Shown: positions 16,041 through 61,399 of the stretch, in pieces
Numbering within the stretch: the first letter of the stretch is position 1
Layout of the letters: the number at the start of each line of letters is the position of its first letter
Assembly: GCA_963792575.1 (NCBI GenBank)
Contig: CAWBWZ010000010.1
Coordinates: forward strand, 136,359-200,358
Direction of reading: 5' to 3'
Origin: an uncultured Acidobacteriota bacterium
GTDB lineage: Bacteria > Acidobacteriota > Thermoanaerobaculia > Multivoradales > UBA5704
DNA length: 64,000 nt
Notes under the pieces: generated by a model
What the model was told of the DNA's origin: nothing
Database searches by the model: none
Seen by the model: the letters and a program-made list of their open reading frames with translations, nothing else
Made by a program: the position numbers and the translations under genes

Positions 16041-16288
16041 GAGCGTTCCGGTCGTGGAGGGAGTTTATCCCAGGCCTGAGGGTGGAGGACGGCAAAGCCG
16101 CGACATGTCAGGACATGCCCTTTGTTGCGCCTCTTGACAACACGGCCGGAATTTGGCTATCTTGGGTCTCGGCAGGCATGCGCGGGGGAAACTTCTGGTC
16201 GCTCTGGTAGCGGCAGCCCCTTTGGGGGTGGGATCCTGAAGCCCGGGGCCTGCTTATTCTTCTCCCTCTAGAATTTCGCGTACCCAGC

Positions 16289-28745: not shown

Positions 28746-29100
28746 GGGGGTGTACCGGTTTCGACGGGGAACAAAGCGGAGCAGTGGGCGGCGTGTCGAG
28801 CTTCCGCTCGTAACACTGGAAAAATAACTGCGAACGATAACTTCGCCCTCGCGGCCTAAAAAGGGCTCGTGACGTTCCGATGGTGGGCCTTGATTCGCGG
28901 CGCCCACCGGAACGACGCTAAAGCGGATCAATGGGTGCGGCGGCCTTGTGACGCATCCTGATATAAAGCAAGGCTGGCTACCGTGCCAGGTTGGCCTTCT
29001 TCCAGAGCACGGTGGCGAGACTTAGAATAGAGGGATACACACGTAGATGCTCCTGATACGCGTTTCTCGGACGTGGGTTCGACTCCCACCACCTCCACCA
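28746..29100 (+). ncRNA. ssrA: tmRNA (SsrA), tag peptide (A)ANDNFALAA
   Basis: 5' GGGGGTGTACCGGTTTCGACGGGG pairs with 3' ...GGACGTGGGTTCGACTCCCACCACCTCCACCA. The internal tag reading frame GCG AAC GAT AAC TTC GCC CTC GCG GCC TAA is present. Confidence 0.85.
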
Positions 29101-29305: not shown

Positions 29306-30175
29306 TTAGATCCTCCAACGGACGCGCGTCCGAAGGGGGATTTTTCCTACCCCAAACCCCTGAACTCTGCCGTCTGGCCCCTTCCGGAACTTTGTAAGTA
29401 TCCGCAAGAACCAGTCATAGGATGGAAGACTCGGCAACCCGCGCGTCTCCCACTCCTCGCCGTATTCACGGAACTGCCGATAGACGTTATAAGCCACTAC
29501 ATCTGCGACCTGCAGCAACTCGGATTGTTTCGAGTCCACAAACCGCAAGTCCTTCAGGTGCTCGAAGGTGAGCCCTTTCCACAGCGTAGAGCCAGTCTTT
29601 CTTAACTGTCCGTGGTGTCGGCGAAGATTCTCACGGTACTGGTTTCCCTTCGGTGTCGCCCCACTCATGTCGTCCACAACTACGGAAAAAGAACGCGAAC
29701 CGCCCACTGAATCACGATCAACGATTTCAGCATGGGCTCGCTGAAGGAGCAGCTCATAGGCCGCGGCAGGTGGATACCAGGCGCGGTCGCCGTAATCCTC
29801 CCGCATGTGAACCTTGTCTACCACACACGCAATGAGCACCAGCTCACTGTCTAATATGGCTTGGTAAAATCGCTCCACAAAGCGTGTAAGGCCAGCTTCC
29901 GACAGGCCAAATCTTCGCAGATACCGGGATGTTCTTTCGTTTTCCAGGCGCAGCCAGTTTGACTTGATTTCTACGTTCTCAGTCCTGAATGTTTCCACCT
30001 TTAAGCGTCGGATCTGTGCCGTGAGCCTTCTCGCGTTTTCTATCCCTAAAAATGGACCTCCGAATACGAAGTAGCGCGTATTTCCCGCTCCGTAAGCCCC
30101 GGAGGGCGAAGACTCCTTGGTCCCGGAATCGTCTACATATAGGATGTGGGTCTCTTCCTCATCTTCCTTTGACAT
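29306..30175 (-). CDS. DUF3800 domain protein within a lower-GC islet immediately 3' of tmRNA
   Basis: MSKEDEEETHILYVDDSGT carries the DUF3800 N-terminal signature. The region 29100-30300 is visibly AT-richer than its flanks. Confidence 0.6.
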   Translation of the reverse strand: MSKEDEEETHILYVDDSGTKESSPSGAYGAGNTRYFVFGGPFLGIENARRLTAQIRRLKVETFRTENVEIKSNWLRLENERTSRYLRRFGLSEAGLTRFVERFYQAILDSELVLIACVVDKVHMREDYGDRAWYPPAAAYELLLQRAHAEIVDRDSVGGSRSFSVVVDDMSGATPKGNQYRENLRRHHGQLRKTGSTLWKGLTFEHLKDLRFVDSKQSELLQVADVVAYNVYRQFREYGEEWETRGLPSLPSYDWFLRILTKFRKGPDGRVQGFGVGKIPLRTRVRWRI

Positions 30176-30300
30176 TAGCAAATTCGGGTCTCGGCCCGCG
30201 GCATATCTCCGGCGGACCAGACAGAGTCTCCTCAATATAAATGTTAAGGTAAATTAACCTCGGAGGCGTGGTGCGTCGACCTTCCTCCGGCGGAGTCCGC

Positions 30301-34180: not shown

Positions 34181-34401
34181 GGGGGTGCTCCTTTGGGTTG
34201 CGTGATGCGTTGGTTTTGCGACGGTTCGTCGAGGTCCCTTTCCGTTTGCTTTTTCAGCTCCGTGTCTCTCTGGGCGCCACCTCCTCTCGGGTTGACGCCG
34301 GCCCTGGAGATCAAGTCCCCTGCCAGATCGGCGACAGCGGCCTAAGTACCTGGATTTAAAAGGGTTGCTGGAAAAGGCGGAGCTCCGGCCCAGGGGGCCG
34401 G

Positions 34402-34488
34402 TGTCAAAGGATCTGGCGGGGAATCGGGGCTGGGGGAGCGAGAATCGAGGCGGGCCGGGCGTTTGCCGGCATGTCAAAGGATCTGGCG
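34402..34488. promoter_or_regulatory. 17-bp direct repeat TGTCAAAGGATCTGGCG x2 (70 bp apart) in the comEA/lepB divergent promoter region
   Basis: Exact copies occur at 34402-34418 and 34472-34488, each preceded by CCGG. Confidence 0.3.
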
Positions 34489-34540
34489 CCGCGCGTGATC
34501 TTTTGCGGCGCGCTGGCCTTTCGAGTACAGTAGCCGCGCC

Positions 34541-35260
34541 ATGGCGGAAGAACGGGTGGAAAAACGCGCGGACGAACGGTCAGTCTGGCGGGAATACATC
34601 GAGGCGTTGATCATCGCCGCGGTGTTCCTGCTGTTCACGAACACCTTCGTCGTGCAGACCTTCTACATTCCGAGCGGCTCGATGGAGGACACCCTCCTCA
34701 TCGGCGACCATCTGTTCGTCAACCGGTTCATCTACGGCCCGACGCCGACTGGGGTGGAGAAGGGGGTGCTGCCGTTCCGCCCGGTGCACCGCGGCGACAT
34801 CGTGGTCTTCCGCTCGCCCGAGAACCCGGCCCTCGACCTCGTCAAGCGCTGCGTGGCGGTGGGCGGCGACACGGTCCAGGTGATCGATCAGCAGCTCTAC
34901 ATCAACGGCAAGGCGGTCAAGGACGCGAGCTACGCCTTGCACAAGAACCCCGAGCCGGTGGGCTTCTTCGTCGATCCGCGCATGCAGCTGCGGGACAACT
35001 ACGGCCCTTACCAGGTGCCCGCCGGCCACTACTTCTGCATGGGCGACAACCGCGACAACTCCTATGACTCGCGGTTCTGGGGGCCGCTGCCCGCCCATCT
35101 CGTCAAGGGGCGGGCGCTCTTCATCTACTGGTCCTATGGCGGGAAGACCTCGACGGGCCAGTGGGAAGGGGTGGGATCGAAGGTCAAGGACCTGGCGGAG
35201 ACCGCGCTCGGATTCTTCTCAAAGACCCGTTGGGAGAGGTCGTTCCGCCTGATCCGCTAG
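34541..35260 (+). CDS. lepB: signal peptidase I
   Basis: Catalytic IPSGSMEDTL and GDNRDNSYDSRFWG boxes. Confidence 0.85.
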   Translation: MAEERVEKRADERSVWREYIEALIIAAVFLLFTNTFVVQTFYIPSGSMEDTLLIGDHLFVNRFIYGPTPTGVEKGVLPFRPVHRGDIVVFRSPENPALDLVKRCVAVGGDTVQVIDQQLYINGKAVKDASYALHKNPEPVGFFVDPRMQLRDNYGPYQVPAGHYFCMGDNRDNSYDSRFWGPLPAHLVKGRALFIYWSYGGKTSTGQWEGVGSKVKDLAETALGFFSKTRWERSFRLIR

Positions 35261-35270
35261 CCGTCGCAGT

Positions 35271-36005
35271 ATGGACGACGCAGGTACTCACGCAGGTATG
35301 CACGCCGAGAAATCCCTGCTCCGGGAGTACCTGGAGGCCCTGCTCATCGCGGTGATCTTCGCGACCTTCGCCCGCACCTGGGTGCTGCAGGCGTTCAAGA
35401 TCCCGTCCGGGTCGATGGAGAAGAACCTGCTGATCGGCGATCACATCCTGGTCAACAAGTTCGTCTACGGGCCGACGATCTCCCCGCTGGAGGAGAAGCT
35501 GCTGCCGATCCGCAAGGTGCGGCGGGGGGACATCGTGGTCTTCAAGTACCCCGAGGACCCCAACCGCGACTTCATCAAGCGGTGCATGGGCCTGCCCGGG
35601 GACACGATGAAGATGATCGACAAGGACCTCTACATCAACGGCAGGCACATCGACGACTCCTCGTTCACCTACTACGCCGACTCCGAGAGCTACCCGCGCG
35701 ACCTCTTCTTCCACGCCAAGCGGGTGCGCGACAACTTCGGCCCCAAGAGCGTCGCGCCCGGCACCTACTTCTGCATGGGCGACAACCGCGACAACTCCAA
35801 CGACTCCCGCTACTGGGGGACGGTGCCCGAGCGCTACGTCAAGGGGCGGGCGTTCATGGTCTACTGGTCCTTCGCCAGCGACGACGAAACGAGTGAGGGT
35901 GGGGAGTGGCCGGGCTATGGCGGCAAGCTGCGGCAGATCGGCGGCGTGGCCCTGAATTTCTTCTCGCTGACCCGGTGGGATAGAACCTTTCGCATCGTGC
36001 GATAA
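35271..36005 (+). CDS. lepB: signal peptidase I, second tandem paralogue
   Basis: IPSGSMEKNL and GDNRDNSNDSRYWG boxes. Confidence 0.85.
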   Translation: MDDAGTHAGMHAEKSLLREYLEALLIAVIFATFARTWVLQAFKIPSGSMEKNLLIGDHILVNKFVYGPTISPLEEKLLPIRKVRRGDIVVFKYPEDPNRDFIKRCMGLPGDTMKMIDKDLYINGRHIDDSSFTYYADSESYPRDLFFHAKRVRDNFGPKSVAPGTYFCMGDNRDNSNDSRYWGTVPERYVKGRAFMVYWSFASDDETSEGGEWPGYGGKLRQIGGVALNFFSLTRWDRTFRIVR

Positions 36006-36040: not shown

Positions 36041-36412
36041 ATGCCACGACGGAGTTCCGAACGGGGCGAGGGGAATCTCGGGTGTATCCTCTGGTTGCTC
36101 GCGCTGGGCCTCGCGGCCCTGATCGCCTGGAAAGCGGTGCCGGTCAAGATCCAGAGCACCCAGCTCTACGACTACATGGACGAGCTGGCCAAGTTCTCGG
36201 CTGCCCGTACGCCGCCTGACGAGCTCGCGAAACAGATCGTCAGCCGCGCCCGGCAACTCGACATTCCGCTCGAGAAGAAGGACGTCAAAATCGTGCGGGA
36301 CGGGGATCGCATCTTCATGGAGCTCGACTACACCGTTCCGGTGCAGTTCCCCGGCTATACGTACCAGTGGCACTTCCACCAGAAGCTCGACCGGCCGATC
36401 TTCATCGTCTGA
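36041..36412 (+). CDS. DUF4845-like small membrane-anchored protein, conserved downstream of lepB
   Basis: N-terminal TM anchor LGCILWLLALGLAALIAWKA and a ~120-aa size. Its position after lepB matches the lepB-DUF4845 synteny seen in proteobacteria. Confidence 0.5.
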   Translation: MPRRSSERGEGNLGCILWLLALGLAALIAWKAVPVKIQSTQLYDYMDELAKFSAARTPPDELAKQIVSRARQLDIPLEKKDVKIVRDGDRIFMELDYTVPVQFPGYTYQWHFHQKLDRPIFIV

Positions 36413-37995
36413 TGCGCGGCTGGCTGGCGATCCTCGGGGGTGGCTTCGCCCCCGGGGCGCTCGCCGGGGTCCAGCTCGCCGGGCTGATCTTCTACCTCAA
36501 TCCGCACCTGCCGTTCGCCTTCGGCCCGGTGCTGCGCGGGAGCCTGATCTACGGCACCCTGATCGGCACGATCAGCCTGGCGCTGCACCTGCCGTTCACC
36601 TGGAGGCGGCCGCGGCGAGCCCGGCGCGCGCTCGCCTGGACCTTCACGGCCGCGCTCGCGGTCTCCGCCCTGCTCGACTGGGCCCACGCCTCCTACTTCG
36701 CCTATTTCCTCCCCCCCGGCATCAACGACCGCCTGATCAAGACCGCCCTCTGGCTCACCCTCGGCACGCTGATCGCCTTCTACACTGCGCTGCTGCACTC
36801 GCTCAGCCGCCGCCGCTACGGCCGGCGCAGCCGCTGGGGGCTGACACTGATCGCGGCGCTCTCGATCTACGCCATGGTCGAGCGCCGGGAGGCGTTTCAC
36901 CCGCGACCCGCGACCACCCCCCGCCCCGCGGCGGTGGAGGCCGGCCAGCGGCCGAAGCTGTGGGTGATCGGCATCGACTCGGCGACGCTCGACGCCATCC
37001 TCCCCCTGGCCGGCCAGGGGCGCCTGCCGTTCCTCGCCACGGTGCTCCAGAACGGCGCCTACGGCCGGCTGAGCTCGATCGTGCCGACGCGGCGCGACGC
37101 GCTGTGGACCACGCTCGCCACCGGCAAATACCCGTTCAAGCACGGCATCACCGGCCGGCGCTCCTACCCCGCCCCCTTCCTCGCTCCCGGCGCCGAGCTG
37201 CGCCTCCTCCCCACCGGGATCTCCTTTCAGCGCTGGGGCGTGCTGGGCGCCAGGCCCATGCCGGCAGGCACGCCGCGGCGCGAAGCGCTGGCGCTCTGGG
37301 AGATCCTGCCGCGACTCGGCGTTCCAGCCGGCGTCGTCGGCTGGCCGGCGGCCAACCCGGAGGCCGGCGAAGCCACCTTCGCGCTCGGGGAAGACCTCTT
37401 CACCGGCGCTCCCGACCCGGACCTCAGGCGGCAAACGATGGCCCTGAAGCTCGCCGGCGAAAACCCGCGCGTAGAGGCGGTCTTCCTGCTGCTGCCGGGG
37501 TTGCGGGGGGTGTCGCGGCGCTGGTTCGGCGGCTTCAACGCCGTGCAGTTCGAGGGCCGCCAGGAAGGGGAGGCGGCCCGCGCCGCGGCCGATCGGGTGG
37601 CCGATGCCTACACGCAGCTCGACGGCCTGCTGGCGGAGGCCTGGGCGCAAGGCCAGGGCCCGAGGCTGCTCGCGGTCATCTCCCCCTACGGGGTGAACCC
37701 TCCGGGGTGGCTGAGGCGGCAGATGGCGCCGGGAGCGGCGCTCGGCGGTGAGTTCCAGGGTGGACCGGACGGCGTTCTGCTCCTCTACGGCGAGGGGATC
37801 CGCCCCGGGGCCCTGCTCACCGGCGCCCGGCTGGTCGACGTGGCGCCCACGCTGCTCTACGGCCTGGGATTTCCCGTCTCACGCGAGCTCGACGGCCAGG
37901 TGCTCACGTCGGCGTTCGAGAAGAGCTTCCTGGCGCGGAATCCGGTGGCGGTTTTTCCCTCGTACGAGGGGCTGGCGCGGGCCGCAAGAAACTAA
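36412..37995 (+). CDS. membrane-anchored alkaline phosphatase/nucleotide pyrophosphatase-phosphodiesterase family protein
   Basis: Four N-terminal TM helices, then KLWVIGIDSATLDAI (a type I phosphodiesterase-like metal site) and LLYGEGIRPG. The ATG overlaps the upstream stop as TGATG. Confidence 0.5.
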   Translation: MRGWLAILGGGFAPGALAGVQLAGLIFYLNPHLPFAFGPVLRGSLIYGTLIGTISLALHLPFTWRRPRRARRALAWTFTAALAVSALLDWAHASYFAYFLPPGINDRLIKTALWLTLGTLIAFYTALLHSLSRRRYGRRSRWGLTLIAALSIYAMVERREAFHPRPATTPRPAAVEAGQRPKLWVIGIDSATLDAILPLAGQGRLPFLATVLQNGAYGRLSSIVPTRRDALWTTLATGKYPFKHGITGRRSYPAPFLAPGAELRLLPTGISFQRWGVLGARPMPAGTPRREALALWEILPRLGVPAGVVGWPAANPEAGEATFALGEDLFTGAPDPDLRRQTMALKLAGENPRVEAVFLLLPGLRGVSRRWFGGFNAVQFEGRQEGEAARAAADRVADAYTQLDGLLAEAWAQGQGPRLLAVISPYGVNPPGWLRRQMAPGAALGGEFQGGPDGVLLLYGEGIRPGALLTGARLVDVAPTLLYGLGFPVSRELDGQVLTSAFEKSFLARNPVAVFPSYEGLARAARN

Positions 37996-38078
37996 GAACA
38001 CGGACAGACACGGACGTAGAGGACGAACACGAGGCCCAGGCGTGTTCGTCCTTTACGTCCGTGTCTGTCCGTGTTCTT
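37994..38078. repeat. AAGGAC/CACGGAC-repeat long hairpin, copy 3, wedged exactly between convergent stop codons
   Basis: AAGAACACGGACAGACACGGACGTAGAGGACGAACACG, loop AGGCCCAGGC, then CGTGTTCGTCCTTTACGTCCGTGTCTGTCCGTGTTCTT. The stem is a near-perfect 37 bp. Confidence 0.6.
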
Positions 38079-38461
38079 TAAGCCTTGGCCACCAGCTTGG
38101 GGCCTGCCGGCCGGGCTTCACGGTTCATCGAGCAGCGCCCTTCGAAAGTGGCGCCGTCTTCAATGATCAGCGAAGGCGTATCGATCTCGGCGAATACTTT
38201 ACCGCTGGGGGCAATTTGAACCTTGCGAAGGGCACGAATAATGCCTTTAACCGTGCCGGAGATGAAAACCTGTCCAGCCCGGACCTCGCCGTCCACCTCC
38301 CCGGCTTCCCCGACGATCAGGTCCCCTTCCGACTCCACCGTGCCGGTGAGCTTGCCGTCGACACGGAACGAGGCGTCGAAGCGCAGCTCCCCCTGGAGAT
38401 GACTGCCACCGTCGAGAAAGCCATTGAGGTCGCTCTGCTTACCGTCCGACTTGAAGATCAT
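38078..38461 (-). CDS. bactofilin (DUF583 polymer-forming cytoskeletal protein), translationally coupled to parB
   Basis: MIFKSDGKQSDLNGFLDGGSHLQGELRFDASFRVDGKLTGTVESEGDLIVGEAGEVDGEV... is a beta-helical bactofilin repeat. Its ATG overlaps the parB TGA as ATGA. Confidence 0.75.
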   Translation of the reverse strand: MIFKSDGKQSDLNGFLDGGSHLQGELRFDASFRVDGKLTGTVESEGDLIVGEAGEVDGEVRAGQVFISGTVKGIIRALRKVQIAPSGKVFAEIDTPSLIIEDGATFEGRCSMNREARPAGPKLVAKA

Positions 38462-39364
38462 CGGTTCTCTCCCCGCTCGATCAGTACGTCGAAAAGCCGC
38501 ATCAGCTCCTCCTCCGAGTGGAAGTGGATGCGGAGCTGCCCACGCTGGCCACCCTTGCCCTGTCGCATGATCTCGACCCGGGTTTGCAGGCGGCGGGTGA
38601 GCCGCTCCTCGGCGGCGGCGGTATGGACCTCGACCGGACGGTCCGGCTTCTTGGTTTTGGGACGCTCCTCCCGGGGGGCGGCGGCCAAGCCGCTCGAGAT
38701 CGCGCGCGGAGAGCCCGTCGCGCACCGCGCTGTCGGCGAGCCGGATCTGCTCCTCCTGATCCTGCAGGCCGAGCAGCGGGCGCGCCTGGCCGGCGGTGAG
38801 CCTGCCCTCGCGCAGCAGGTCGAGCACATCGTCCGGCAGGCGCAGCAGGCGCAGCGAGTTGGTGACCGTGGTGCGCGCCTTGCCGACGCGGGCGGCCACC
38901 TCCTCCTGCGAGAGGCCGAACTTCTCCTGGAGGGCGGCGTAGGCTTCGGCCTCCTCGATCGGATTGAGATCGCTGCGCTGCAGATTCTCGACCAGGGCGA
39001 GCTCCAGCAGCTCGCGATCGTCGGCGACCTGGCGAACGACCACCGGAACCGATTCGAGCCCCGCTTTCCGGGCCGCCCGCCAGCGGCGTTCGCCGGCGAT
39101 GATGGCGTAGCCGTCCCCCTCGGCCGTCACCACCAGCGGCTGAATGACTCCCTGGGTGCGGATCGACGCCGCGAGGTCCTCGATCGCCGCATCGTCGAAG
39201 CGGGTGCGCGGCTGGAAGCGGTTGGGGTGCAGGCGATCGATGGGGAGTGTGCGCACCGGCTCGTCCGGCTTCGGCTCGGCCTTCTCGATCAGCGCGTCGA
39301 GGCCGCGGCCGAGCCCACGCTTCTTGCCAGCGGTTTTGCTTTCCGTAGTGCTGCTGGCCATCAT
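38458..39364 (-). CDS. parB: chromosome partitioning protein ParB; 1-bp insertion frameshift near ~38690
   Basis: N-terminal GLGRGLDALI and ParB-box IIAGERRWRAA...LVENLQR with an HTH, then (after the shift, ORF 38458..38829) the C-terminal dimerisation segment ...GQLRIHFHSEEELMRLFDVLIERGE. Confidence 0.85.
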
Positions 39365-40114
39365 GCCGCCCTCCGCAGGAACTCGCGCGCGAGCGCGAGG
39401 TAGGCCACGGCGCCGCGCGACTTGATGTCGTACTGGAAGATCGGCAGGCCGTGGCTCGGGGCCTCGGCCAGCCGGATGTTGCGGGGGACCACCGTCTCAA
39501 AGACCTTGCCGGCGAAGTGAGAGCGGATCTCCTCGGCCACGTCCTTCGACAGGTTGGTGCGGTCGTCGTACATCGTCAGCAGGATGCCGGCGATCTGGAG
39601 GCGCCGGATTGAGGCTCCCCTGGATGCGCTGGACGGTGGCCAGCAGCTCGCTGATCCCCTCCAGGGCGAAGTACTCGCACTGGAGCGGCACCAGAATGCC
39701 GTCCGCGGCGGTGAGAGCGTTCACCGTCAGGTGGCCGAGCGACGGCGGGCAGTCGAGCAGGATGGTGTCGTAGCGGTCCGCGACCTCGGCGAGAACGCCC
39801 TTGAGGCGCTGTTCCCAGCCGCTCTCGCCGACGAGCTCCACCTCGATGCCGACGAGGTCGCGCTGCGCCGGGACGAGATCGAGATTGGGGAACCCGGAGG
39901 GGCGGATCGCCGCCGAGATCGGCACCTCGCCCGACAGGGCATGGTAGAGGTGCGGCTCGGTCGCCCGGACGCCGAGGCCGCGCGTGGCGTTCCCCTGCGG
40001 ATCGCTGTCGACGAGCAGGACGCGCCGCTCGAGGGCGCCGAGGCCGGCGCCGAGGTTGATGGCGGTGGTGGTCTTGCCGACCCCACCTTTCTGGTTCGCG
40101 ATGGCGAGAATCAT
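39361..40114 (-). CDS. parA: chromosome partitioning ATPase ParA (Soj); 1-bp frameshift near ~39600
   Basis: MILAIANQKGGVGKTTTAINLGAGL Walker A and DCPPSLG, then the C-terminal piece ...MYDDRTNLSKDVAEEIRSHF in ORF 39361..39573. Confidence 0.85.
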
Positions 40115-40776
40115 GGTTCGGTTTGGCCCAGGGGCTCGGGAGAGGCGCGGCGCAGCGCCAGGATGCGCCGTTTCTCGCTCCCCGCGAGCGGCAGGCTGCC
40201 GCAGGAGACGAGCTCCGCCGGCAGCTCGGGATCGTGCTCACCCGCCCAGAGGAGGACGCGCCCGTCCGCGTCCAAGCGGTTCGCGAGGGCTCTCCAGGTC
40301 TCGGGATCGAGGCGCAGGGCCCGCGAGGTGATCACATCGATGCTCTCCGGCAGGCCGGAGGGCAACGGAACCTGGACTCTAGCATCGAGGCACCGGCAGG
40401 GCAAAGCGGCCTTGCGGGCGGCGGCGGAGAGGAAGGCCCACTTGCGCTCCCGCGCCTCGACCAGCGTCATTTCCAGCCCGGGACGGGCGGCGGCGAGGAC
40501 CAGACCGGGAAAGCCGGCGCCCGAACCGAGGTCGAGCCCGCGCCGGGCGCCCGCCGGCATCAGAGGGAGCGCTGCGAGCGACTCGCCATAGTGGCGGGCC
40601 AGGATCTCATCCCGGGTGCCCGGCCCGATCAGGTTCGTCCGCCGGTTCCAGAGCGCGAGCTCGCGGTAATGGGCAAGAAGAGCGTCGATCGCCCGCTCGT
40701 CGAGCGGCTCCGGAGAGAGCTGGCGGATCGCCTTGGCGAAATTGGCGCGCGAGATGTCGGGGAGGACGAAGGCCAT
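40111..40776 (-). CDS. rsmG: 16S rRNA (guanine527-N7)-methyltransferase RsmG (GidB)
   Basis: DLGSGAGFPGLVLA SAM motif and RsmG family pattern. Its stop overlaps the parA start. Confidence 0.8.
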   Translation of the reverse strand: MAFVLPDISRANFAKAIRQLSPEPLDERAIDALLAHYRELALWNRRTNLIGPGTRDEILARHYGESLAALPLMPAGARRGLDLGSGAGFPGLVLAAARPGLEMTLVEARERKWAFLSAAARKAALPCRCLDARVQVPLPSGLPESIDVITSRALRLDPETWRALANRLDADGRVLLWAGEHDPELPAELVSCGSLPLAGSEKRRILALRRASPEPLGQTEP

Positions 40777-40802
40777 GGGAGTGGGATCTTAGAACGGGTG
40801 AA

Positions 40803-40818
40803 TGTTTCACGTGAAACA
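40803..40818. other. parS: parS centromere site (perfect palindrome TGTTTCACGTGAAACA)
   Basis: Exact match to the canonical parS consensus TGTTNCACGTGAAACA, 27 bp upstream of rsmG. Confidence 0.8.
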
Positions 40819-40841
40819 AGGGGCAGAGAGCTGAAGCGGCA

Positions 40842-40857
40842 TGTTTCACGTGAAACG
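40842..40857. other. parS: second parS site (TGTTTCACGTGAAACG, 15/16)
   Basis: Located 39 bp from the first site, in the same intergenic region. Confidence 0.75.
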
Positions 40858-40862
40858 TCGCC

Positions 40863-40893
40863 AAAAAGAAAAGCCGGCTAAAAAGCCGGCTCT
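40863..40893 (-). terminator. Rho-independent terminator downstream of jag (minus strand)
   Basis: Minus strand reads GAGAGCCGGC-TTTTTA-GCCGGCTTTTCTTTTT. Confidence 0.6.
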
Positions 40894-40917
40894 CTCACGA
40901 TCGCTACCGTGAGGCTG

Positions 40918-41971
40918 CTACGCCGGCCGGACCATGATCCGCTTGAAGTAGCCGTCCCCTTCGCTCTCGGTGACCACGTTGGGGTCATCCGCCAGGGTGG
41001 TGTGGATGATGCGGCGGTCGCCCGGGTTCATGGGCTCCAGGACCCGCGGCTTGCCACGCTTGCGGACCTCCTCGGCCACCCGCTGGGCCAGGCTGCGCAG
41101 ACGCTCCTCCCGGATCTCGTGGAAGTTGTCGCAATCCACCCGCACGGCAGTGGTCTCGCCGCCACTCAGGGAGCGGATCATCCGCGGCAGCAGGTGCTCG
41201 ATCGCCATCAGGATCTCGCCGTCGTCGGCGAAGCACCAGTCCACATCCTCTCCCACGAGGTCCACCTCCAGCCGCTCCTCCCCCTGGAAGACCCGCGGCT
41301 TGAGATCCAGACCCCGCGACGCGGACTAGCAGGTTCGCCGCCTTCGCCGCGGCTTCACCCATCGGTCCAGTCGCCTCCGGATAGCGCTCGGAGATTCCCC
41401 GCGGCCGCTCCGGCAGGGTCACCAGATCACCCTCCGGATTTACCTGCGGGCCCGCCTCGCGCCTGGCGGAACGGCTCCGCCTCCGGCAGGCGCGGCGACC
41501 GCGGCGCGAAATCCCGCTCGCGGCGGCGAGGCCGCTCGCCGCCACGGTCCCCGCCACGCCGCCTCCGCGGCCTCCGCGATCCCCGCGCAGCCGGTCTCCA
41601 CGGGGCTCGCGCGGCGGACGGGCTTCCCGCGCCTCCGGCGCTCGCGGCGGCGGCGCGGCCGCGGGTGCAGGCGCTTCCCCTTCCACATCGGCCTGGGGAA
41701 GGGGGCTCGCCTCCGGTCGCGTCCGGTACTCGGATGGCACCGGCGGTGGGAGGGTGCGGGTTGCCGCGGGGACCGACACCGGCGTCTCGCGGCGCGGGTT
41801 CTCGGGGTCAACCTCGATGACCACCTTGCGGCGGGTCTTCAGGAAGCCGTGCTTCTTCTCGAGGCTGCGGTAGGCGACATAGCTGGGGTCGAGATTGAAA
41901 TAGTTGGCGGCCTGAACCAGAGCCTGTTGCAGGGTGTCGCCGGAAAAATAGCGTCGCTTGGCGTCGTTCAT
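40918..41971 (-). CDS. jag: RNA-binding protein Jag/KhpB (Jag_N, low-complexity linker, KH and R3H domains); frameshifted
   Basis: N-terminal MNDAKRRYFSGDTLQQALVQAANYF is the Jag_N domain. The C-terminus in ORF 40918..41265 (...GETTAVRVDCDNFHEIREERLRSLAQRVAEEVRKRGKPRVLEPMNPGDRRIIHTTLADDPNVVTESEGDGYFKRIMV) carries the KH/R3H domains. Confidence 0.7.
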
Positions 41972-44653: not shown

Positions 44654-44743
44654 TGGCGGAGAGGGTGGGATTCGAACCCACGGACCGGTTGCCCGGTCAA
44701 CGGTTTTCGAGACCGCCCCATTCGACCGCTCTGGCACCTCTCC
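44654..44743 (-). tRNA. tRNA-Ser (anticodon CGA)
   Basis: The reverse complement is GGAGAGGTGCCAGAGCGG...GGCGGT-CTCGAAA-ACCGT...GGTTCGAATCCCACCCTCTCCGCCA, with a long variable arm. Confidence 0.85.
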
Positions 44744-44767
44744 GGTTGTCTTATTCGTTTGAATCGA

Positions 44768-44857
44768 TGGCGGAGAGAGTGGGATTCGAACCCACGGTAG
44801 AGTTTCCCCTACACACGCTTTCCAAGCGTGCTCCTTAAGCCACTCGGACATCTCTCC
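44768..44857 (-). tRNA. tRNA-Ser (anticodon GGA)
   Basis: The reverse complement is GGAGAGATGTCCGAGTGG...CACGC-TTGGAAA-GCGTG...GGTTCGAATCCCACTCTCTCCGCCA. Confidence 0.85.
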
Positions 44858-46497: not shown

Positions 46498-46626
46498 GCA
46501 GTGGCCCACGAAGGGTTCGGGTCCTGTGCATCGGCCACTACCGAACCTCGTCAGGCCCGGAAGGGAGCAGCGATAAGGTATGCGGTCGAGTGCCGCAGCT
46601 TCACCGGAACCCTTCGTAGACCACTC
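46498..46626 (+). ncRNA. ffs: SRP RNA (4.5S RNA, ffs), immediately upstream of dnaX as in B. subtilis scr
   Basis: Conserved domain-IV motif GTCAGGCCCGGAAGGGAGCAGC (consensus GUCAGGUCCGGAAGGAAGCAGC). 5' CGAAGGGTTC pairs with 3' GAACCCTTCG to close the long hairpin, and an outer AGTGG/CCACT pairing extends it. Confidence 0.65.
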
Positions 46627-58723: not shown

Positions 58724-60029
58724 ATGTCGCAATCCTATTGGTCTCTCCTCCAGAGACAGCTTCAGCAGCAGCTCGATCCCGACGAGTTCGCCACCTGGTT
58801 CCGCCCCTTGCGAGTGGGTGACGAGGATGGCCGCCGGCTGGTGCTGGTGGCTCCCAACTCGCGCTTCCTCCACACGCTGGAGGAGAGCTACCGGCCGATG
58901 GTCGACCGGGCGGTGGCGGGCCTGGCGGACTCCGGCGTTCGAGGTGCTGTTCTCGCTCGACGACATCGAGGTCGCCGCTTCCCCGGAAGAGCCGATCACG
59001 CCGTCGAGCTTCAACCCCAAGTACATGTTCGCCAGCTTCGTCGAGGGCAAGTCCAACGAGTTCGCCCTCGCCGCCGCCAAGCGCGTGGCCGAGAACCCGT
59101 CGCTCTCCTACAACCCGCTCTTCCTCTATGGCGGCGTCGGCCTCGGCAAGACCCATCTGCTGCACGCCATCGGCTCACGAGATCCAGCGCAGCCGGCCGC
59201 AGCTGCGCGTGCTCTACCTGGCCGGCCGAGCAGTTCGTCAACGAGCTGATCAACTCGATCCGCTTCGACCGCATGCCGGCTTTTCGCGAGCGCTACCGCA
59301 CGATCGACGTGCTGATGATCGACGACGTGCAGTTCCTGGCCAACAAGGAGCGGACGCAGGAGGAGTTCTTCCACACCTTCAACACGCTCTACACCAGCCA
59401 GAAGCAGATCATCCTCTCCTCCGACTCCTCGCCGCGGAACATCCCGACGCTGGAGGAACGGCTGCGCAGCCGCTTCGAGTGGGGGCTGATCGCCGACATC
59501 CAGCCGCCGGACCTGGAGACCAAGGTGGCGATCCTGCAGCGCAAGGCCTCGCTCGAGGACATCCAGCTTCCCGAGGAGGTGGCGCGAGTTCATCGCCCAG
59601 CAGGTGAAGTCGAACATCCGCGAGCTCGAGGGGTTGCTGACGCGGGTGATGGCCTTCTCCTCGCTCACCGGCAAGCCGCTCTCGCCGGCGCTCGCCCGCG
59701 AGACGCTCAAGGACATCCTCCCCGAGGAGGGGAAGAAGCCCCGCCGCGGCCGAGATCATCAAGGTCGTGGCCCGGCACTACGACCTCAAGGTCTCCGAGA
59801 TCAAGAGCAAGAGCAACTCGCGGCAGATCGTCATCCCGCGGCAGGTGGCGATGTACCTCTGCAAGCGCGCTGACGGATCTCTCCTACCCGGAGATCGGCA
59901 AACTTTTCAACGACAAGCACCACTCGACGGTCATGTACTGCGGTCGAGACGGGCATCGAAGAAGCGCGACGCCGAGCGATCCGCGACTTCGACCGCACCC
60001 TCAAGGCCTTCGAGCAGCACTTCAAGTAG
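58724..60029 (+). CDS. dnaA: chromosomal replication initiator DnaA, broken by at least six 1-bp indels
   Basis: Pieces lie in three frames: [29 protein letters not shown] (domain I); [21 protein letters not shown] (Walker A); [10 protein letters not shown]; [10 protein letters not shown]; domain [18 protein letters not shown]. Confidence 0.85.
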
Positions 60030-60298
60030 GCCGTGACAGGCGGAAGACCGCCTGCGGGAAAGCCTGTGGAGAGGCGCCGCGACAAGCGTTGTGGAAAATC
60101 TGCGGAATTTTTCTCGGCCTTACGGGCTTTTCCGCACCGCCTCCACAACCCGTCCACAGGTTACCCACAGCCCTGCCGAAGACCTAAGGTTTGCCACTCT
60201 GACAGAGGCTTAGGTCCGGTTTTCCGCATTTCCGCGGCGCCTATCTACTACTACTGCTATGCTATATATTCAGATGTCTTCTAGAGGAGGAAGAGTGA
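60030..60298. other. oriC: candidate oriC: DnaA-box cluster plus AT-rich unwinding element in the dnaA-dnaN intergenic region
   Basis: Boxes TGTGGAGAG (60065), TGTGGAAAA (60090), CTCCACAAC (60141), TCCACAGG (60154), TTACCCACA (60161, 8/9) and TTTTCCGCA (60220). These are followed by the 45-bp AT-rich CTATCTACTACTACTGCTATGCTATATATTCAGATG containing (TAC)3. Confidence 0.6.
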
Positions 60299-61399
60299 AT
60301 GGAGATCCGCGTCACCCGTAGCGAGTTCCTGGGCGAGCTGGCCCCGATGCAGGGCATCGTCGAGCGCAAGACCACCATCCCGGTCCTCTCGCACCTGCTG
60401 CTGACGGCGCGCGGGGACAAGCTCCACCTGGCGGCCACCGACCTCGACGTCTCGCTCACCTCCTGGTGCGAAGCGGAGGTCAAGCGCGAGGGCGGCATCG
60501 CCGTCCAGGCCAAGAAGCTGGTGGAGATCATCCGCTCGCTGACCGGCGAAGAGGTGCTGCTCGTCCAGGAAGAGCCGCGCGTGCTCTCCATCCGCGCCGG
60601 CAAGTCGCGCTTCAAGATCCACGGCCTGGCGCCGGACGATTTCCCGACCCTCCCCGACGGTCGAGGACGGGCGCCGGGTCGACATCCCGTTCGCCGACTT
60701 CCGCCGCATGGTCGGCCAAGATCCTCTTCGCCGTCTCGGCCGAGGAGTCCCGCTTCCAGTTGAACGGCGCCCTGCTGAAGCTCAAGGACGGCTCGCTGGA
60801 GATGGTGGCGACCGACGGCCACCGCCTCGCCCTGGTCGAGGGGGGGCTCGAGAGCGCCGGCGGCGAGGACTCCGTCCTGGTGCCGCGCAAGGCCCTCCAG
60901 GAGCTGCAGCGCTTCGAGGGGGAGGGCAAGCTCTCCTACGGCCGCGGCGAGCACCACCTCTCCTTCGGCCTCGGCCGGCGGGAGCTGATCTGCCGCATCC
61001 TCGAGGGGACCTTCCCGGACTACGAGCGGGTGATCGCCAAGGACAACGACAAGAAGGTCCTGCTTCGACCGCAAGAACCTGGTCGACGCCGTGCAGCGCG
61101 CCGCGCTGATGACCGGCGACCGGGCGCGCGCCGTGCGCCTGCAGTTCGCGCCCGACCAGGTGGTGATCTCGGCCGTCAACTCCGACCTCGGCGAGGCGAT
61201 CGAGGAGGTCGCCTGCGACTACGACGGTCCCGAGTTCCGGGTGGGGATCAACCCCGACTACCTGCGCGAGTTCCTCTCCGCCGTCGAGACCGAGAAGGTC
61301 CGGCTGGAGCTCAAGGACGAGAATACGCAGTGCGTCGGCTATCCGCAGGACGGGCCCGACACCCGGTATCTCTGCGTGATCATGCCGATGCGAATCTGA
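60299..61399 (+). CDS. dnaN: DNA polymerase III beta sliding clamp; several 1-bp indels
   Basis: MEIRVTRSEFLGELAPMQGIVERKTTIPVLSHLLL...; middle LNGALLKLKDGSLEMVATDGHRLAL; C-terminal ...PDYLREFLSAVETEKVRLELKDENTQCVGYP...VIMPMRI. GAGGAGG RBS. Confidence 0.85.

Follow-up and report, generated by a model that had tools for sequence, protein, structure and literature searches.

Overlap of a bactofilin gene with parB in the probably origin-proximal ParABS locus of an uncultured acidobacterium

ParABS loci and bactofilins in described systems

In chromosome partition by ParABS, ParB-CTP clamps load at parS sites, spread and slide along the DNA, and form a partition complex. This complex is pulled by nucleoid-bound ParA-ATP, and the N-terminal peptide of ParB triggers hydrolysis by ParA. 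Bactofilins need no nucleotide to polymerize; their filaments are stable and recruit client proteins. We analyzed a 64-kb stretch of DNA (64,000 nucleotides of contig CAWBWZ010000010.1, here called the window) from an uncultured Acidobacteriota bacterium, in which two parS sites precede a set of minus-strand genes in the order rsmG, parA, parB, and bactofilin. All coordinates are those of the window.

The closest described systems are found in Myxococcus xanthus and Bdellovibrio bacteriovorus. Bactofilins are able to organize ParABS: the M. xanthus segregation scaffold consists of BacNOP and the ParB-like adaptor PadC, encoded away from parAB, and this bactofilin polymer is tied functionally to the positioning of ParA and of ParB-parS (PMC5703909). 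That scaffold needs PadC, a ParB-like CTP-binding adaptor, and three copolymerizing paralogues with the long-tailed BacP as their core, and its genes form a separate operon, bacNOP-padC, that does not lie beside parAB. The M. xanthus bactofilin gene that is immediately downstream of parAB, and is cotranscribed with it, is bacM (MXAN_7475) (PMC3899335, PMC5703909). The role of BacM is in cell shape, not segregation. In B. bacteriovorus, the gene order is bd3908 (an rRNA methyltransferase gene)-bd3907-parA-parB-bd3904 (a bactofilin gene), and parA3-parB-bd3904 were placed on one transcript by reverse transcription-PCR (PMC10547168, PMC7186360).

The parB-coupled bactofilin of the window is an acidobacterial instance of this arrangement, which was known before from Myxococcus and Bdellovibrio, and from its gene position we infer that it corresponds in place to BacM of M. 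xanthus and Bd3904 of B. bacteriovorus. As in M. xanthus, where the order is parA-parB-bacM(-MXAN_7474) and the locus is origin-proximal, a small single-domain bactofilin gene comes straight after chromosomal parAB at what appears to be an origin-proximal locus. Unlike the M. xanthus genes, those of the window belong to another phylum, start with rsmG, and overlap by 4 bp. The proteins differ as well, in that BacM has 150 amino acids (aa), of which a 27-residue N-terminal part is removed by processing (PMC4372379), whereas the bactofilin here has 127 aa and a 13-residue N-terminal tail bearing DLNGFLD. Compared by gene order, the likeness to Bdellovibrio lies in the succession of a methyltransferase gene and parA-parB-bactofilin and in a pair of chromosomal parS sites close to the operon, although in Bdellovibrio bd3907 intervenes between the methyltransferase gene and parA. 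With the canonical ParABS systems (Soj/Spo0J of B. subtilis and ParAB of C. crescentus and T. thermophilus), the locus shares the parS consensus tGTTtCAcGTGAAAcA, the ParB domains, the GERRxR motif, a deviant Walker A motif in ParA, apparent proximity to the origin, and the order rsmG(gidB)-parA-parB. It differs from them only in the appended bactofilin gene and in having both parS sites in the upstream spacer of the operon. What is new is modest: how widespread and how tight the linkage is, terminal motifs specific to one bactofilin clade, and no PadC-type adaptor nearby.

The parS sites and the rsmG-parA-parB-bactofilin genes

The window holds the ParABS locus for chromosome partition, apparently close to the origin, of an acidobacterium of the Thermoanaerobaculia type, and the identity of its parts (parS, rsmG, parA, parB, and bactofilin) is near certain. 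Genes were named by Pfam, and rsmG, ParA, and ParB were also scored with NCBIfam. Along the minus strand, the first gene is rsmG (40111-40776), which encodes a 221-aa 16S rRNA m7G527 methyltransferase matched by Pfam GidB at 98 bits; its TIGR00138 score of 89.5 bits is slightly below the cutoff of 99.5. The next, parA (39361-40114), encodes a Walker-type partition ATPase that matched Pfam AAA_31 at 195 bits and also CbiA and reached no NCBIfam equivalog cutoff. Following it is parB (38458-39364), the gene for the CTP-dependent centromere-binding clamp, with matches to ParB_N (113 bits), HTH_ParB (119 bits), and ParB_C (33 bits). The last gene (38078-38461) encodes the bactofilin, which scores 92.9 bits against PF04519, compared with a gathering score of 27.9, over profile positions 3 to 97 of 98.

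Each junction between these genes is an ATGA overlap, read directly from the sequence at 40114-40111 (rsmG/parA), 39364-39361 (parA/parB), and 38461-38458 (parB/bactofilin). The couplings at rsmG/parA and parA/parB and the bactofilin start over the parB stop, all of which had been reported in the initial annotation, are thus present, and they are conserved in relatives. A Shine-Dalgarno-like motif, GGAGA, lies 6 nucleotides (nt) before the bactofilin ATG. The overlap probably couples bactofilin translation to that of ParB. Because of the 4-bp overlaps, and because no internal terminator occurs before a hairpin at 37990-38080, the genes from rsmG to the bactofilin gene are predicted to be cotranscribed.

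The two parS sites lie in the 141-bp spacer between jag, also on the minus strand, and rsmG (40777-40920; jag stop at 40918, rsmG start at 40776). Site 1, proximal to rsmG (40803-40818, no strand assigned), reads TGTTTCACGTGAAACA and is a perfect 16-bp palindrome with 0 mismatches; site 2, distal to rsmG (40842-40857, no strand assigned), reads TGTTTCACGTGAAACG and has 1 mismatch to the palindrome. Their start-to-start spacing is 39 bp. When the window was scored against the 16-bp consensus TGTTNCACGTGAAACA, allowing at most 3 mismatches, these two sites were the sole matches, against an expectation of 0.05, and two matches arose in 0 of 100 dinucleotide-preserving shuffles. The scan and the shuffles confirm the pair upstream of rsmG as it had first been described, including the one perfect palindrome and the spacing. 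The core of site 1 is invariant across 11 aligned jag/rsmG spacers, and the position of site 2 is also kept in relatives. With canonical parS sequences, a dnaA start approximately 18 kb away, and no further parS in the window, the pair appears to be rightly read as an origin-proximal chromosomal centromere, and the earlier proposal to that effect is upheld.

Besides the two parS cores, the only conserved element in the 11-spacer alignment is a motif that reads CTAAGAT or CTAGAAT in relatives. In the window it contains the hexamer TAAGAT (40786-40791, minus strand), approximately 10 nt before the rsmG ATG, which may serve as the -10 element of the operon promoter; conservation of the motif in the spacer alignment is the one reason for proposing this promoter. 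A possible weak -35 element, TTCACG, sits within parS site 1, 18 nt upstream of the -10-like motif. This position of the motif implies that rsmG would have a very short leader or none. ParB bound at site 1 would lie over the putative -35 element and may in this way autoregulate, by repression, its own operon. Just past the jag stop, a terminator-like hairpin with a T-run (40869-40894, minus strand), consisting of an 11-pair stem, GAGAGCCGGCTTTTTAGCCGGCTTTT, and then CTTTTTGG, sets jag apart from the rsmG-parAB-bactofilin unit. Comparable GC hairpins are found at the same spot in only some of the relatives in the spacer alignment.

As sequenced, the reading frames of parA and parB are broken, and in ParB the ParB_N and HTH_ParB domains share one frame and ParB_C lies in another. 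Alignment with four relatives revealed one extra base in parA near 39601 (GGCGCCTCC versus GC-TCTCC) and one extra T in parB at 38686/7 (CGGCTTGGCC versus CGGC-TGGCC), and the parB frameshift mentioned in the initial annotation is therefore real in the window. Removal of the extra bases gives a 250-aa ParA and a 301-aa ParB. The corrected ParA has the deviant Walker A motif KGGVGKTT and is approximately 92 to 94% identical to the ParA of the related locus L001. The corrected ParB scores 177 bits against TIGR00180 (cutoff, 58) and carries the ParA-activating peptide KKRGLGRGLDALI, the CTP-binding motif GERRWRAA, the helix-turn-helix (HTH) domain, and the C-terminal dimerization domain. Its end, ...IERGENR-TGA, falls exactly over the bactofilin ATG, and the bactofilin open reading frame (ORF) is left intact by the correction.

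Frame breaks are not confined to the par genes. The frame of jag changes within 41313-41678, the pieces of dnaA fall in at least three frames, and the frame of dnaN is lost after approximately 120 aa (58724-60763 for the two genes). None of the parA, parB, and jag breaks occurs in the closest relative, L003, which has 93% DNA identity to the window over 12.4 kb. Because dnaA, dnaN, and jag are also broken, and because L003 lacks the breaks in parA, parB, and jag, the latter breaks are most likely indel errors of the assembly and not signs of pseudogenes. The pattern looks like that of long-read indel errors. Given the many single-base frame breaks in essential genes, ORF-based annotation of the window is unreliable.

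The same extra T creates a 428-aa ORF (38078-39364) in which, as sequenced, the N-terminal and HTH domains of ParB are read in frame into the bactofilin. Were this ORF to encode a real fusion of ParB and bactofilin, or to arise by programmed frameshifting, DNA-bound ParB would be tethered directly to a filament. However, the read-through depends on a single base that four relatives lack, the other frame keeps the C-terminal domain of ParB perfectly intact, and relatives have separate 299-aa ParB and bactofilin proteins. Furthermore, the breaks in dnaA, dnaN, jag, and parA of the same assembly are typical of indel sequencing errors. We rejected the 428-aa ORF as an artifact, and a true fusion is effectively refuted.

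The nearest solved relatives of the bactofilin by sequence are TtBac of T. thermophilus (6ria; E value, 7e-10) and BacA of C. crescentus (2n3d; E value, 1.5e-7). Like these proteins (6RIA/6RIB and 2N3D), to which it is 31 to 33% identical, it would form a six-winding right-handed beta-helix. An AlphaFold2 (AF2) model from a 43-sequence alignment had a mean predicted local distance difference test (pLDDT) score of 84, with beta strands across residues 14 to 107 and disordered tails at residues 1 to 10 and 117 to 127, where the pLDDT fell below 50. The best Foldseek match of the model was 6rib, with a target-normalized template modeling (TM) score of 0.89 and a root mean square deviation of 1.1 Å, followed by 6ria and 2n3d; nothing else was significant. 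The predicted structure thus confirms the bactofilin fold. At the family level, the fourth gene is predicted to encode a minimal bactofilin of the type that forms nucleotide-independent beta-helical polymers.

Membrane targeting by an N-terminal consensus of the MFSKKKK type is typical of most bactofilins and not universal (PMC12448750). The N terminus here, MIFKSDGKQSD (MIFKSDGKQSDLNGFLD), differs from this family consensus and does not fit it, being hydrophobic at positions 2 and 3 but having two Asp residues and only two Lys residues. An N terminus resembling the membrane-targeting sequence was present in only 13 of 150 cluster representatives. The motif [DE]L[NSD]GF[LVI][DN], seen in the window protein as DLNGFLD, occurs at the start of the first winding in 120 of the 120 closest homologues. 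The C-terminal tail of approximately 14 residues, with GPKLVAKA, corresponds to a tail that is conserved in both acidobacterial subfamilies as ...GPK[LR]VA[QK]KA or ...NLVAKA. The two terminal motifs of parB-linked bactofilins are candidate client-binding or membrane-binding peptides. Both lie outside the beta-helix.

Reach of the parB-bactofilin linkage and the role of the bactofilin

The closest homologues of the bactofilin (72 to 94% identity) come from Thermoanaerobaculia and Acidobacteria metagenome-assembled genomes. A relative with a 7.66-Mb genome has the operon intact, in the order rpmH-rnpA-yidD-yidC-jag-rsmG-parA(250 aa)-parB(299 aa)-bactofilin, and its three junctions from rsmG onward are each a 4-bp overlap. 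A synteny scan with one genome per species gave 23 loci. One was a distant match on a Rhodoferax contig of 1.6 kb; the bactofilins of the remaining 22 are 52 to 97% identical to that of the window, and their loci carry the labels Thermoanaerobaculia, Holophagales, and Acidobacteriota. The order yidC-jag-rsmG-parA-parB-bactofilin was found in all 22. When the loci of the scan were counted together with two found earlier and the window, the parB/bactofilin junction read ...ATGA... (once GTGA) in at least 20 of the 24 related loci. The jag/rsmG spacer contained one or two parS sites (at most 2 mismatches) in 20 of the 24, located 2.3 to 2.6 kb upstream of the bactofilin start, and parS occurred nowhere else in those 12-kb relative loci.

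More distant bactofilins were collected by searching 1.84 billion cluster representatives exhaustively with HMMER, which yielded 14,976 hits, and the genomic context was examined for nine of the best 150. Seven of these nine genes lie directly after parB (P0126, P0273, P0133, P0142, P0153, P0163, and P0231; 36 to 52% identity), separated from it by at most 35 nt or overlapping it by 4 bp. Their other neighbors vary and include RmlD, a CxxCxxCC protein, GtrA with a glycosyltransferase, the atp operon, and lipA. The linkage thus persists at 36 to 38% bactofilin identity and about 44 to 49% ParB identity. For an eighth gene, P0171, ParB was not found upstream on its short contig. In a rough neighbor-joining tree (134 columns, no bootstrap), ten of ten parB-linked proteins fell into one clade of 68 of the 133 leaves, which holds every sequence with the strict motif and leaves out P0171, P0178 (the ninth protein), and TtBac. 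Two metagenomic lineages, L029 (72% GC) and L031 (56% GC), carry no taxon label. A protein search seeded with P0142 and aimed at other phyla returned only 13 weak hits, and one seeded with P0138 returned Thermoanaerobaculia again. Cluster look-ups yielded Acidobacteriota or Holophagales names or no name at all. We found no published survey of parAB-bactofilin neighborhoods; the one neighborhood survey consulted concerns M23 peptidases (PMC10945521).

Two of the related bactofilin genes, at 4001-4456 of L034 and 5001-5399 of L035, are both just upstream of an ATP-synthase operon. One comes after mreC-mreD-pbp2-rodA and the other after parA-parB, which suggests a rearrangement that swapped the upstream partner and kept the bactofilin-atp junction.

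Because parB is the only constant neighbor across this deep divergence, the reading that we favor, at a probability of roughly 0.45, is that the bactofilin works with the partition machinery as a segregation-linked scaffold. A link to segregation is plausible because parB adjacency is deeply conserved; the Myxococcus precedent does not demonstrate it. Under this reading, bactofilin made from the same mRNA as ParB would form a filament that serves as a fixed landmark or anchor, in the cytoskeleton or at the envelope, for either the ParB-parS complex or ParA, and the anchoring would be direct, without a PadC-type adaptor. Several observations weigh against such a scaffold. The reading presumes cotranscription with parAB, polymerization of this bactofilin, and contact with ParB or ParA. 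The putative -35/-10 pair of the operon makes 8 of 12 consensus matches, and a sigma-70 promoter scan of 37.9 to 41.1 kb made no call at the threshold used. Searched with a profile of 150 bactofilin representatives, the window showed no second bactofilin, and phmmer searches with ParA and ParB found no second ParA or ParB-like (PadC-like) gene among the window ORFs. The extras of the BacNOP/PadC system are thus not found in the window, in which there is neither a ParB-like adaptor nor a bactofilin paralogue and the C-terminal tail is not of the BacP type. Two short peptide strings of BacM, deduced from primer sequences in the literature (PMC4372379), occurred in no retrieved protein, including the nearest 150 cluster representatives, which weakly suggests that BacM may not be among the closest relatives of the window bactofilin. 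Every taxon name recovered for the parB-linked clade is acidobacterial (Thermoanaerobaculia, Holophagales, and Acidobacteria). The near relative P0178 (39% identity) directly follows mreC-mreD-pbp2-rodA and precedes the atp operon, a context that points to a cell-wall theme. Finally, deletion of bacM causes no significant change in ParA or ParB localization, and BacM acts in cell shape (PMC5703909, PMC3899335).

The last two points are those on which a BacM-like role in cell shape draws, and this role ranks close behind the segregation scaffold as a real, if tentative, possibility. The bactofilin would then be a morphogenetic scaffold that positions or modulates peptidoglycan synthesis or hydrolysis, and its place in the parAB operon would serve cell-cycle coexpression only, with no physical link to ParABS. 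BacM occupies the same genomic position and is the only parB-linked bactofilin with genetic data, and morphogenesis is the role of most characterized bactofilins (PMC10945521, PMC12448750). However, adjacency to parB, often with overlapping codons, has been retained while other neighbors change, which exceeds what coexpression usually needs, and the operon has no cell-wall gene. That same retention bears on the idea that the bactofilin gene is a neutral hitchhiker, its place being inherited gene order in one phylum-level lineage without any function shared with the partition genes. Since the clade names are all from Acidobacteriota, vertical inheritance alone could explain much of the conservation. 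Nevertheless, the linkage holds down to the lowest bactofilin and ParB identities given above with differing flanks, the 4-bp overlap is maintained, and the same arrangement has been reported in Myxococcus and Bdellovibrio (PMC3899335, PMC10547168); we regard hitchhiking as improbable. More specific than the segregation-linked scaffold itself is the proposal that the parB-coupled bactofilins are an old, distinct clade, marked by DLNGFLD and ...LVAKA, that serves as a dedicated extra ParABS component in Acidobacteriota and contacts ParB or ParA directly, without PadC, to anchor or space the partition complex. This proposal we hold to be doubtful, though worth stating. As for the BacNOP/PadC-like scaffold that the initial annotation had read from the parB coupling, the gene order, the couplings, and a plausible link to segregation stand. 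The choice of BacNOP/PadC as the Myxococcus parallel is not supported, in that the adaptor, the paralogues, and the long tail are not in the window and the parAB-linked Myxococcus bactofilin, the nearer precedent, is BacM, which is dispensable for ParABS.

The parS and ParAB part of the locus is textbook, and its use is limited to marking the origin and centromere in the genome of an uncultured acidobacterium. The bactofilin touches a small question, namely, why several unrelated phyla keep a bactofilin gene at the end of the parAB operon although BacM, the one tested, has no segregation phenotype. Added here are the findings that nearly all members of a large acidobacterial clade have the pairing, that it outlasts rearrangement of all other neighbors, and that specific terminal motifs are shared. 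Together, these findings supply concrete candidates for interaction tests. If ParB or ParA does contact the bactofilin directly, bactofilin-guided segregation would be generalized beyond Myxococcus, and if the bactofilin is a dedicated component, it would represent a simpler and probably more widespread form than Myxococcus BacNOP/PadC.

Other features of the window

On the same strand, upstream of the operon, lie two tRNA-Ser genes and then rnpA, yidD, yidC, and jag. The tRNA-Ser genes (anticodons cga and gga) are adjacent, at 44654-44857, directly upstream of rnpA-yidD-yidC. dnaX and the signal recognition particle (SRP) RNA are at approximately 46.5 kb. The SRP RNA (46515-46613) overlaps the listed start of the dnaX ORF at 46580, and the true dnaX start therefore lies further downstream. 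The multiply frameshifted dnaA (58724-60187, plus strand) has partial matches to Pfam DnaA_N, Bac_DnaA, and Bac_DnaA_C, with pieces in three frames, and is followed by dnaN, from 60299.

At the other end of the operon, the hairpin at 37990-38080 (minus strand) is near perfect, with stems of approximately 37 bp and an RNA fold dG of -73 kcal/mol (z score, -10.4). Starting from the stop codon of the bactofilin gene, it occupies the gap between this gene and a convergent phosphodiesterase-family gene and is likely a bidirectional operon terminator, although its length far exceeds that of an ordinary intrinsic terminator. We also considered a repeated element and rejected it, the hairpin being single copy in the window and its exact sequence occurring in none of the fetched loci. 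A degenerate version is found at the same place in L003. The gene that converges on the bactofilin gene (36367-37995, plus strand) belongs to the phosphodiesterase/nucleotide-pyrophosphatase family, and beyond it, at 34358-36002, come a 123-aa ORF and a tandem pair of S26 signal-peptidase genes. This phosphodiesterase/signal-peptidase block downstream of the bactofilin gene is kept in most relatives (L001, L003, and L026 to L028).

A DUF3800-VII small RNA (Rfam RF02967, 78 bits) lies at 16171-16259, 13 kb from a tmRNA and a DUF3800 gene. The tmRNA (28746-29100) is followed directly by the gene for the DUF3800 protein (29306-30235, minus strand), in the stretch of the window with the lowest GC content (0.61). 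The tmRNA-DUF3800 region may be an islet integrated at ssrA.

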